A stretch of 64,000 bases of DNA from Cyclobacteriaceae bacterium. Its GTDB lineage: Bacteria; Bacteroidota; Bacteroidia; Cytophagales; Cyclobacteriaceae. The DNA is taken from assembly GCA_041749015.1 (NCBI GenBank), contig JBGTCD010000155.1, positions 9,068-73,067 of the forward strand. The letters are read 5' to 3'. Each line of letters begins with the position of its first letter. The first letter of the stretch is position 1. The notes under the pieces were generated by a model. It was not told the DNA's origin and did no database searches. It saw only the letters and a program-made list of their open reading frames with translations. Positions 27,450 through 37,570 of this stretch are shown in pieces. The position numbers were made by a program, and so were the translations under genes.

Positions 27450-27504
27450 TTAAGCAGGCACAGCGGTCCTACGACTTAAATGTTGGACATCACTTTTGTT
27501 AATT

Positions 27505-27535
27505 GGGTCGTAGCGAGACGCTACGACCAGGGGGG
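27505..27535. repeat. hairpin repeat, family H
   Basis: ggtcgtagcg-aga-cgctacgacc forms a perfect 10-bp stem, followed by agg. Confidence 0.65.
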
Positions 27536-27636
27536 TTTAGGTTTTATTATGACAAACTTGGATATATTTACATTTTCCTAAGCAGTTTACCTGCCGGAGC
27601 ACAGCAAAGGCAGGTGAAAATGACACCCCTGTAGAA

Positions 27637-36547: not shown

Positions 36548-36670
36548 TCACTTCCCGATACAAAACTTACTGAAGATATTCTCCAGCAGGTCATTGGTAG
36601 TAATCTGGCCGGTGAGGGAGCCCAGATCCCCGCCACGACAAAGCCTGAGAAGGCCGTCTAATTGTGGGTT
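36548..36670 (-). pseudogene. mnmE: orphan 3'-terminal fragment of mnmE (tRNA modification GTPase)
   Basis: Translates to ..[26 protein letters not shown]. The C-terminal FCIGK and preceding ITGxxTxDDLLxxIF pattern are the hallmark MnmE C-terminus. An in-frame stop lies 40 codons upstream. Confidence 0.55.
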
Positions 36671-36744
36671 TTAAAAAGTTTGTCCCCCTTTTTGTCCCCC
36701 TTTTTTTTGTAAAGTATTGAAAAACAATAACTTAAATCGAAATT

Positions 36745-36828
36745 AAGTACCCAGAGCCTACGTTCCCGCCCTTCGGGTCGGACAAGCCCGCCCTACGGGA
36801 CGGGATAAACTTCTCCTCCGGCTCTTAC
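36745..36828 (-). repeat. tRNA-Leu 3'-end-like element interrupted by GC-rich hairpins
   Basis: aagtacccagagcc (36745-36758) repeats the 14 nt at the tRNA-Leu 3' end (36855-36868). The distal ccggctc (36819-36825) mimics the other T-arm strand. Confidence 0.45.
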
Positions 36829-36856
36829 TAGCTTCTAACTTCTAAAAACTAAAAAG

Positions 36857-36940
36857 TACCCAGAGCCGGAGTCGAACCGGCACGATATTGCTATCATTGG
36901 TGTTTGAGACCAACGCGTCTACCAATTCCGCCATCTGGGC
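36857..36940 (-). tRNA. tRNA-Leu (anticodon CAA)
   Basis: 84-nt cloverleaf: acceptor GCCCAGA/TCTGGGT, anticodon loop CTCAAAC, long variable arm, T-arm GCCGG-TTCGACT-CCGGC. Confidence 0.9.
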
Positions 36941-37190
36941 ATATACCATTAAACTAACCTAAACCCTCATTTAGGGTCAAGGACTTTCCCAGTGACAGGG
37001 TAGACGCGGTCTACCAATTTACCTGCCGGAATCTGAAGGATGCAGGCAGGTTCTGCCATCTGGGCATTTTACCATTAACTAACCTTTCCCCTCATTCAGG
37101 GCAAGGACCTTCCCAGTGACAGGGTAGACGCGGTCTACCAATTTACCTGCCGGAATCTGTAAGATGCAGGCAGGTTCCGCCATCTGGGCA
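36941..37190 (-). repeat. two tandem ~125-bp repeats, each beginning with a tRNA-Leu 5'-end copy split by a hairpin insertion
   Basis: Units are 36941-37066 and 37067-37190. On the minus strand each starts TGCCCAGATGGC(G/A)GAA, then the CCTGCC..GGCAGG hairpin, then ATTGGTAGAC. This mirrors tRNA positions 1-24. Confidence 0.7.
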
Positions 37191-37267
37191 TTAAAATTTG
37201 GGACTGCAAATATGGGTAAAGAAATCCTGATTTTCAACGACACGGTAAAATTTGGGCTTCGGGAACC

Positions 37268-37570
37268 TCAAACAGGACGGACTTCAATCAATTTTTCGAG
37301 CGAAAAGGCCACCGTCTTTTCGGCAAACAAAGGCTTGACCTGCTCCCATACCAATTTAAAAACTTCTGAATTCCGGTATGCCTCCAAATCCTTTTCCGAC
37401 TCCCACTGGCTCATGGTGGTCATCACATTGGGATTGCCGGGCTCCTTCATCAGGGCCAGGTGGGTACAGCCCGGGAAAGACCGGATGTCTTTTTTGTACC
37501 GGTTGAAGATATCTAGAAATTCCGCCGCTTTTCCGGGGATGAAGGTCATTTTAACGATTCTAACCAGCAT
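37268..37570 (-). CDS. antibiotic biosynthesis monooxygenase (ABM) domain protein
   Basis: 100 aa from MLVRIVKMTF. It shows a ferredoxin-like ABM pattern with WESEKDLEAYRNSEVF. The longer ORF to 37687 overlaps the upstream gene. Confidence 0.6.
   Translation of the reverse strand: MLVRIVKMTFIPGKAAEFLDIFNRYKKDIRSFPGCTHLALMKEPGNPNVMTTMSQWESEKDLEAYRNSEVFKLVWEQVKPLFAEKTVAFSLEKLIEVRPV

Follow-up and report, generated by a model that had tools for sequence, protein, structure and literature searches.

Within a 64,000-nt stretch of the genome of a Cyclobacteriaceae bacterium (GCA_041749015.1, contig JBGTCD010000155.1, positions 9,068 to 73,067 of the forward strand; hereafter the window), the tRNA-Leu(CAA) gene is preceded by two tandem units that begin with copies of its own 5' end and is followed by a partial copy of its 3' end, each of them interrupted by hairpins. 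We consider it probable that the two units and the downstream piece are dead tRNA-Leu(CAA) fragments, relics of a family of tRNA-resident elements that combine a GIY-YIG nuclease gene with a palindrome, here non-autonomous and devoid of the open reading frame (ORF). A full member of this family would comprise a single-domain GIY-YIG gene for a protein of 78–88 amino acids (aa), a CCTGCC/GGCAGG palindrome in the D- or T-loop of a displaced tRNA copy, and an intact tRNA copy that supplies the host. We infer that the family is a selfish element; the copies in the window are themselves probably inert. Our literature searches turned up neither a description of such cassettes, in which GIY-YIG gene and palindrome are linked to a tRNA, nor a paper with the 20-nt palindrome.

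The tRNA-Leu(CAA) gene itself is intact (36856..36940, minus strand; ARAGORN; Rfam RF00005, 56.4 bits) and is the sole CAA isoacceptor among the 33 tRNA genes of this 3.5-Mb, 158-contig genome. The two units stand directly upstream of it on the minus strand, as an earlier note on this DNA had described, with their starts shifted by one base to 37189 and 37065. Counted from the G matching tRNA nt 1, unit 1 spans 124 nt (37066..37189) and unit 2, which has the same layout, 125 nt (36941..37065); the tRNA being copied lies 125 and 249 nt downstream. Alignment to the tRNA confirmed that each unit starts with a copy of the tRNA 5' end and that its D-arm is split by a CCTGCC-N17-GGCAGG hairpin. The 5' part, GCCCAGATGGC[G/A]GAA, matches tRNA nt 1–15 at 15/15 positions in unit 1 (37189-37175) and at 14/15 in unit 2 (37065-37051, with G13A). 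A 29-nt hairpin (37174-37146 and 37050-37022) and TAAA (37145-37142 and 37021-37018) follow, together an inserted module of 33 nt, and the tRNA sequence then resumes with TTGGTAGAC, equal to nt 16–24 (37141-37133 and 37017-37009). Taken as nt 14–24 (AATTGGTAGAC), the resumed segment matches 11/11 in both units; this match starts at A14, so AA stands on both sides of the hairpin. The perfect palindrome GGTAGAC-CGC-GTCTACC (37139-37123 and 37015-36999) comes next, then a third hairpin (37106-37083 and 36982-36958) and an AT-rich tail, and the structured spacer after tRNA nt 16–24 amounts to ~66 nt. These further hairpins had been noted before and are real, with a longer stem surrounding CCCT..AGGG. 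The units are 91% identical overall, 95% over the first 94 nt and 73% over the remainder.

The unit is a single-locus feature. A genome search for further copies of the 125-bp unit, proposed in the earlier note, was run with a 250-bp query, which matched only itself in the 3.5 Mb. A tRNA-derived short interspersed nuclear element (SINE) or miniature inverted-repeat transposable element (MITE), an origin suggested at that stage, would be expected in many dispersed copies; with one locus in this genome and no copy in relatives, it did not hold up. The tRNA and covariance-model scan proposed alongside (ARAGORN, Rfam 15 over 36600-37300) scored the intact tRNA at 36856-36940 alone, the units having no match, not even to tRNA, at E values up to 5. 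The identification of the units as a T-box, a riboswitch, or a permuted or intron-containing tRNA was likewise unsupported by both programs. The sole ORF over the units (54 aa, across unit 1) had no Pfam match and was treated as spurious.

The reading of the units as tRNA-derived partial copies interrupted by hairpins was borne out by the same split-D-loop design at other genomic loci. When 185,579 species genomes were searched with the pattern GAACCTGCC-N4-24-GGCAGG-N0-6-TTGGTAGA, at least 118 loci matched, compared with ~2–3 expected by chance according to our own estimate (23 specified bases); the definition of the family is operational and was set from these loci. The canonical insert is a perfect 20-nt palindrome, CCTGCCTGCCGGCAGGCAGG, between GAA and TTGG. 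Hosts among the matches listed, to which the tRNA, spacer and ORF counts below also refer, were Bacteroidota of many families, Ignavibacteria, Balneolaceae and several phyla of the Candidate Phyla Radiation (CPR), besides single contigs of metagenome-assembled genomes (MAGs) labelled Planctomycetales, Gammaproteobacteria, Campylobacterota and Clostridia. A same-strand tRNA gene was present ≤700 nt downstream in 102 of the 132 matches; all 102 were tRNA-Leu, with all five anticodons represented, and the 5' fragment nearly always equalled the 5' end of its own neighbouring tRNA. Where the spacer was 200 nt or longer, it encoded one conserved GIY-YIG protein family in 58/67 cases (consensus M.Y.YAIKS..RNYIYVG.TNNLERRL.EHN.G.NK.TK.Y.PF.LIY.E.F.TR.EAR.REKYLKSG.GKEFLK; 78–88 aa, catalytic domain alone). 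Short spacers (<200 nt) contained the ORF in 0/35 cases, 10 of these 35 having it just behind the tRNA instead. As 25 of the 102 comparable loci are ORF-less, members like those in the window are common. Within Cyclobacteriaceae the D-loop palindrome was found in 6/251 genomes and 5/132 genera (this genome counted), and patchiness within a family combined with identity across phyla is the signature of a horizontally moving element. The pattern had 0 matches in 2.9 million viral contigs.

The hairpin in the window shares with this family the D-loop site (between GAA and TTGG) and the CCTGCC/GGCAGG arms; its loop has 17 nt, versus 8 in the canonical palindrome. Because the locus has no nuclease ORF, we filed it as a relic or non-autonomous derivative and not as a full member. 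Comparable ORF-less arrangements were seen elsewhere: five tandem units of ~100 nt with a long-loop hairpin (L036), a tandem pair (L029), and a unit directly before the tRNA (L133). In a genome of another family of the order (G034), a 113-nt ORF-less unit precedes tRNA-Leu(CAA) (L026:445-560, G034:C1) and the canonical palindrome is shifted by eight bases in the 3' direction within the D-arm, to lie between GGTAGA and CGCG, which indicates that the D-loop site is preferred, not absolute. Within Cyclobacteriaceae, a complete MAG chromosome (OZ245027; L089:1520-2630) has a promoter, then a GIY ORF abutting an intact tRNA-Leu(CAA) nearly identical to that of the window, then four full-length tandem copies of the tRNA with a period of 192 nt; these are D-loop-plugged and their 5' acceptor strand is destroyed, and ARAGORN still calls them tRNAs. 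Another genome of the family (G015) carries three intact tandem tRNA-Leu(CAA) copies with a period of 114 nt. Judged from these arrangements, a decay series within the family is plausible, leading from an intact array through plugged full-length copies to truncated, plugged, ORF-less units.

The genome of the window also contains an intact, ORF-bearing member. Upstream of tRNA-Leu(TAA) on contig C87, a partial 5' copy of that tRNA has the palindrome CCTGCCTGCCGGGAGGCAGG in its D-loop, flanked by GCCGGGATGGTGGAA and TTGGTAGAT; a 78-aa ORF follows, and then the intact tRNA, starting GCCGGGATGGTGGAATTGGTAGAC. The encoded protein consists of the GIY-YIG catalytic domain alone (Pfam, 2.5e-18), and its nearest solved structures are UPF0213 proteins (weak match). 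Small GIY-YIG genes number eight in this genome, and six of the eight lie within ~500 nt of a tRNA gene (Leu-TAA, Val twice, Asn twice, Ser), tRNA neighbourhoods making up ~1% of the genome. A second subfamily accompanies Val (two tandem copies) and Asn (one intact gene and one with two in-frame TGA stops). Partial self-copies flank the Val, Asn, Thr, Asp and His tRNA genes, with the anticodon arm replaced by a TCCCGxC..GxCGGGA hairpin (C1:44780-45500, Val; C90:25900-26700, Asn; C63:18150-18238, Thr; C104:76470-76800, Asp; C141:38400-38480, His), and 9 of the genome's 11 hairpins of this type sit in such self-copies. In this genome the nuclease subfamily changes together with the hairpin class, the Leu type going with CCTGCC..GGCAGG and the Val/Asn types with TCCCG..CGGGA; the Leu-type protein is only 27–31% identical to the Val and Asn types. 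Hairpins of the CCTGCC type considered here number only ~8–10 in the genome. Other palindromes were also noted. A hairpin like the repetitive extragenic palindromic (REP) sequences, GGTCGTAGCGAGACGCTACGACC, occurs at window positions 27492-27540 and in at least 15 genomic copies, one of them just behind tRNA-Leu(TAA) on C87. Nested CCTGCC/GGCAGG palindromes (CCTGCCTGCC..GGCAGGTAAACCGGCAGGCAGG) at C64:55862, C108:52498, C149:21525 and C67:10838 are flanked by the inverted repeat GTCCTGAGTT/AACTCAGGAC and may be a further family of hairpin elements.

Comparison of the tRNA-Leu locus in related genomes, which the earlier note had also called for, provided clean empty sites. The succession SAM-hydroxide adenosyltransferase (SAM_HAT), ABM-domain protein, tRNA-Leu(CAA) is shared by eight or more other genera in the same family and order, and in these syntenic genera the gap between the ABM stop codon and the tRNA is ~60–95 nt, without units, compared with 327 nt here. 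Subtraction of 250 bp leaves 77 nt, inside the range of the relatives; the 250 bp are therefore an insertion relative to them. The position of the promoter agrees. In this genome, ordinary tRNA genes mostly carry a Bacteroidota-type −7 motif, TAnnTTTG, 10–18 nt upstream; none precedes the intact tRNA-Leu(CAA). A promoter-like −7 motif, CATATTTG(CA), is found instead 17 nt upstream of unit 1 (37207..37214, minus strand). The same motif, CATATTTGCA, at that distance before unit 1 here, stands 18–43 nt before the intact tRNA in three relatives (L009, L012, L013), which indicates that the gene originally began where the 5' fragment of unit 1 now stands. Displaced by 250 nt from its promoter, the working tRNA presumably depends on read-through, and the units would be co-transcribed with it as a leader of ~250 nt. 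Scans of metagenomes for relatives of the units, with CCGGCAGGTAAATTGGTAGAC and with GAACCTGCC-N8-30-GGCAGGTAAATTGG, returned nothing, or one unrelated contig without a tRNA.

The hairpin module is a discrete insertional unit, as its occurrence in a second, non-tRNA context demonstrated. The hairpin of the window is a lineage-specific variant, CCTGCCTRC-loop-CGGCAGG-TAAA, that occurs at six further places in the genome, four of them in copies of the dispersed repeat described next; within the window, a TAAA-tailed copy (CCTGCCTTTGCTGTGCTCCGGCAGG followed by TAAACTG) lies in a non-tRNA context at 27590..27614 on the minus strand. A dispersed repeat of ~290 bp, which starts with GTGCGGCTGGGTGTCCAC and ends with TTGGGCAAGCAAAAAAGAATA, gave ~20 BLAST matches, of which 16 copies, 75–87% identical, were aligned (for example C1:3180-3467, C137:2407-2695 (L025) and C155:799-1026, the last outside the window). 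It has no Rfam match and no obvious ORF. In 4 of the 16 aligned copies a 28–29-nt module, CCTGCC-N13-GGCAGGTAAA, is inserted cleanly before TTGGG; the other 12 have an empty site, ttctttt joined directly to ttgggcaagc. The module thus stands directly before TTGG, as it does in the D-loop between GGAA and TTGG. The four modules are 93–100% identical, versus 75–87% for the host repeats (P < 0.01 for four of the six pairs), which favours separate later insertions or else strong constraint on the hairpin. In the star-like tree of the repeat, the copies with the module form no group of their own; a single origin is still compatible with it.

A bolder reading of the module is rather doubtful in our estimation. 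The TAAA-tailed palindrome of 28–33 nt (CCTGCCTRC-loop-CGGCAGGTAAA) would be a minimal mobile element, inserted before TTGG in transiently single-stranded DNA by the single Leu-type GIY-YIG protein of the genome, that of C87, acting in trans; the D-loop, GGAA followed by TTGG, would be its best natural target, and the tandem units would be the trace of successive rounds in which a highly transcribed gene was cut, repaired by fold-back (GGTAGAC-CGC-GTCTACC) and duplicated. Were this so, the hairpin-guided nuclease and its mini-element would form a pair distinct from the HUH-transposase systems.

Behind the tRNA, a 3' partial copy with a plugged T-loop occupies 36745..36824 on the minus strand, 31 nt of spacer separating the tRNA 3' end from its first bases, GAGCCGG. 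This sequence (36824-36818) is the 5' strand of the T-stem with one change and is followed by AGGAGAAGTTTAT (36817-36805), by two GC-rich hairpins, both bulged, namely CCCGTCCC-GTA-GGGCGGG (36804-36787) and CCGACCC-GAA-GGGCGG (36781-36765), by the degenerate 3' side of the T-loop, AACGTA (36764-36759), and by an exact copy of the last 12 tRNA nt plus TT, GGCTCTGGGTACTT (36758-36745). The earlier description of this piece as a T-arm with a giant loop fits the T-stem strands found on either side of the hairpins; the 14-nt repeat of the tRNA 3' end, AAGTACCCAGAGCC, that it reported at 36745-36758 is exact, and the CCGGCTC it placed at 36819-36825 is present one base lower, at 36818-36824.

This 3' module has homologues. 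The motif GCCGG-AGGAGAAGTTYAT (≤1 mismatch) was found in 31/251 family genomes and 25/132 genera, compared with 6 matches for the reversed control pattern. Of the 12 loci inspected, eight have it ~50 nt downstream of tRNA-Leu(CAA) with its terminator. In these relatives the module reads GCCGG/AGGAGAAGTTTAT CCCGAT..ATCGGGA/ACTCCGGCCCTGGGTAC (L013 among them); a terminator-like hairpin comes next in several of them, which in L148 is a near-copy of the first hairpin. In the window version, the single hairpin of the relatives is replaced by two CCCGxCCC-GNA-GGGCGG hairpins. Across genomes, a 3' partial copy also follows the intact tRNA in 21 of 85 Leu loci. Four of these copies (L079, L081, L106, L120) have the same palindrome as the D-loops in their T-loop, around GGTTCGA, and four others (L027, L068, L076, L100) closely related variants such as CCTGCCTGACGGCAGACAGG; a GIY ORF lies between the tRNA and the plugged copy in 6 of these 8 loci. 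In such layouts the working tRNA, with or without the ORF, has a 5' piece plugged in the D-loop on one side and a 3' piece plugged in the T-loop on the other, and the two pieces look like parts of one former gene. The tRNA in the window is nested in the same way without an ORF, its 3' module having hairpins of another type. At C35:10724-10815, with no tRNA near, the tRNA 3' end and the left part of the 3' hairpin module recur at 90% identity.

The 3' side of the tRNA is also the attachment (att) site of an island. The flank at 36640..36744 (minus strand) recurs at C14:4545-4662 with 91–95% BLAST identity. The stretch C14:4545-6057 contains, in order, an ORF for a 439-aa integrase-like protein, a clean copy of the 3' half of tRNA-Leu(CAA), and a flank of ~120 nt equal to window positions 36758-36640 at 91–95%. 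The half copy spans the anticodon stem to the 3' end with an intact T-loop, and Rhs-type accessory genes are found on both sides. Read from this gene order, the C14 stretch is probably the junction of an island, or of tandem islands, integrated at tRNA-Leu(CAA). An att site at the tRNA 3' end explains the repeated flank and leaves the hairpin-plugged pieces unexplained. The pieces on C14 and C35, like the ~290-bp repeat, belong to no Rfam family. Within the repeated flank there is an exact tandem pair of TTTGTCCCCCTT (on the minus strand, AAGGGGGACAAA twice) at window positions 36679-36702, which the C14 copy has with one change. Between the tRNA region and the accessory genes, a frame at 36548-36670 (minus strand) ends in the conserved MnmE C-terminus and is an orphan 3' gene fragment; pieces of ~80 nt similar to it occur on C96 (twice) and C142.

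The two units share one fold at the RNA and the DNA level alike, a three-way junction followed by a separate third hairpin. In its closing stem the pseudo-acceptor strand (CCCAG.UGGCGG) is paired with CUGUCACUGGG; the CCTGCC/GGCAGG palindrome hairpin forms one arm and the GGUAGAC/GUCUACC hairpin the other. The RNA folding energies are −48.8 kcal/mol for unit 1 (z = −3.3 relative to shuffled sequence) and −49.8 kcal/mol for unit 2 (z = −4.1), the corresponding DNA z-scores being −3.6 and −4.0. Since the pseudo-acceptor strand is tied up in these self-contained junctions, maturation of the tRNA is probably undisturbed. In the model, the compact fold may have been selected, for instance to keep the pseudo-5' end off the real tRNA 3' strand in the precursor; it may also be a by-product of the palindromes only, there being two sequences to judge from. 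At the junction GGTAGAC/CGCGTCTACC, a tRNA segment is followed by its own reverse complement, which looks like a scar of fold-back repair at the point where the homology to the tRNA stops. No fold-back junction of this type was seen at the other loci examined, and it is an isolated observation.

Several points weigh against assigning the locus to the GIY-YIG/palindrome family. The hairpin in the window departs from the canonical one in its 12–13 nt of extra loop, in TAAA in place of the outer CAGG arm, and in the D-loop AA on both of its sides. A search of the genome with tblastn and Pfam detected no GIY-YIG ORF or recognisable ORF remnant at the locus. The ~66-nt spacer had no significant similarity to the ORF-bearing cassettes among the 118 fetched loci or to the GIY ORF, and compared with the rest of the tRNA and its 3' flank it scored no better than chance (470–874 of 1000 shuffles scored as well); its only hint of kinship is the last 17 nt of unit 1, which resemble the tail of the ORF-less unit in G034 (5/2000 shuffles). 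More generally, no nuclease gene adjoins 25 of the 102 comparable loci, and members of the palindrome family are also found in non-tRNA contexts, so that the evidence for a causal tie of nuclease to palindrome is correlative. Hairpins could also be moved by the three Y1 transposase homologues of the IS200/RAYT type that the genome encodes (C50, C87:37938, C155:102378). Finally, unit 2 keeps the fold although G13·U has become A13-U and its third hairpin is rebuilt with other pairs, which could mean selection on RNA or DNA structure. Part of this evidence would suit another history, namely ordinary slippage duplicates of tRNA-Leu(CAA) that decayed and were colonised by an independent REP-like mini-palindrome, spread by a Y1/RAYT-type transposase or by replication errors, the GIY-YIG protein having no role at this locus. 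The intact tandem array in G015, the insertion of the module alone into the ~290-bp repeat, the three Y1_Tnp homologues and the lack of an ORF, here as in a quarter or so of the comparable loci among the matches listed (25/102), are all as that history would have them. It does not account for the single GIY-YIG family that adjoins the palindrome at 58 of the 67 long-spacer loci among those matches, nor for the change of nuclease subfamily with hairpin class in this genome; the palindrome keeps to fixed tRNA-loop positions across phyla, unlike a general REP, and no Y1 gene was seen near the loci examined, though this was not a systematic check. We therefore regard such a history as unlikely.

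Two further accounts appear weaker still. In one, the units would be a functional structured 5' leader or small RNA, which might act as a processing decoy, control the output of tRNA-Leu(CAA) or be a tRNA-like RNA transcribed from the shared promoter. The common three-way junction and hairpin with their low z-scores, the G·U to A-U change and the retention of the third hairpin despite ~27% divergence point in this direction, as does the promoter upstream of unit 1, from which the units are probably transcribed. A conserved structured leader, as the earlier note had envisaged among its alternatives, is nevertheless not supported, since the eight or more syntenic relatives lack the units and Rfam gave no match up to E = 5. 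Only 6 of 251 family genomes have the D-loop palindrome, folding is about as good for the DNA strands as for the RNA, which is expected of palindromes, and the spacers of ORF-less units in other genomes are unrelated in sequence; an RNA function thus seems decidedly improbable. In the other account, the repeats would be att-type scars of integrase-mediated insertion or excision of an island at the tRNA gene. The integrase-like ORF, clean 3' half copy and ~120-nt shared flank on C14, with the Rhs-type genes on both sides, show the 3' end of this tRNA to be an evident island site. The segment duplicated in integrase att repeats is the 3' part of the tRNA gene, and in the units it is nt 1–24; the earlier objection that att duplication fails to explain the 5' copies therefore stands, the true att-like copy being the one on C14. 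Moreover, the units bracket 125 bp without an integrase gene, between the copies of the 14-nt 3' repeat there are only 95 bp of hairpin module, and the T-loop-plugged 3' module is found in 25/132 genera regardless of any island. We give this account almost no weight.

We thus favour the descent of the units and the downstream piece from the GIY-YIG/palindrome family, and among the alternatives first listed for the locus, decayed tRNA gene duplicates colonised by hairpin repeats came closest. Under this scenario, tRNA-Leu(CAA) would have been duplicated or split in connection with an element of the family, the partial copies arising from break repair or duplication. The redundant 5' copy would have taken up the palindrome and then decayed through internal deletion, either losing the ORF or never having had one, and the unit would have doubled when its 5' repeats recombined unequally. 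Insertions would survive only in redundant copies. The nuclease would cut tRNA-gene DNA or its own palindrome, the latter probably being its cis-site; the palindrome would also insert alone before TTGG, perhaps with the nuclease from the tRNA-Leu(TAA) locus acting in trans.

One of the closest known systems is the Ssn family of single-domain GIY-YIG nucleases, which cut single-stranded DNA at hairpin repeats (NTS/SRM) and are arranged NTS-ssnA-NTS (PMC11893778). Its authors note the resemblance of this gene/hairpin layout to insertion sequences (IS); the Ssn repeats form dispersed sets of tens to hundreds, and the word tRNA has 0 occurrences in that paper (PMC11893778). The likeness lies in the layout: a bare GIY-YIG protein of ~80–100 aa with a cognate GC-rich hairpin, and gene-less copies of the hairpin in both. 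In the present genome, the single-domain gene on C87 has one palindrome beside it, and the CCTGCC-type hairpins of this kind number only ~8–10. Unlike Ssn repeats, the palindromes of the present family occupy fixed D- or T-loop positions in displaced tRNA copies beside an intact copy, and are few per genome. We filed the features of the window as ORF-less relics of a variant of free-standing GIY-YIG or Ssn-type nuclease elements with hairpin repeats.

The free-standing GIY-YIG homing endonuclease SegB of phage T4 is encoded in a tRNA gene cluster, and its site contains the tRNA T-loop motif (PMC2330249). The present family resembles it in having a GIY-YIG nuclease gene lodged among tRNA genes. 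SegB has a DNA-binding domain beyond the catalytic domain, is phage-borne, and comes without palindrome plugs or partial tRNA copies; the family here consists of the catalytic domain only. A SegB-like free-standing homing endonuclease was rejected as an identification, as the 78–88-aa proteins have no separate DNA-binding domain and NCBIfam grpIintron_endo scored 25 bits, under its cut-off of 56. REP sequences and bacterial interspersed mosaic elements (BIMEs) with their REP-associated tyrosine transposases (RAYTs), like the IS200/IS605 'peel and paste' elements, rely on a Y1 HUH transposase that acts on DNA-hairpin palindromes and short specific targets. They share with the present family short palindromes found with and without the enzyme gene, and the module here likewise inserts at a short target, before TTGG; they differ in the enzyme, in lacking tRNA-loop targeting and the retention of an intact tRNA, and in copy numbers that are usually much higher. 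Tyrosine-integrase islands, too, use tRNA genes as landing sites and leave them intact by means of a duplicated segment, and the 3' side of the tRNA in the window is also such a site. Their repeats are 3' and bracket kilobases including an integrase, unlike the 5' (nt 1–24) and T-arm segments split by hairpins here, which bracket 0–300 bp.

Relics of this kind confuse tRNA annotation and the prediction of islands from att sites, and nuclease and palindrome together are a candidate for an Ssn-like DNA tool with structure or sequence specificity. For the family as a whole, the locus adds clean empty sites, a series within one bacterial family, and an in-genome contrast of filled and empty sites for insertion of the palindrome before TTGG. 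Few sequences in any cell are as conserved, or as heavily transcribed, as tRNA genes. If the reading proposed here is correct, a nuclease of ~80 aa and a 20-nt palindrome would live inside them without killing the host, one working copy always being left.

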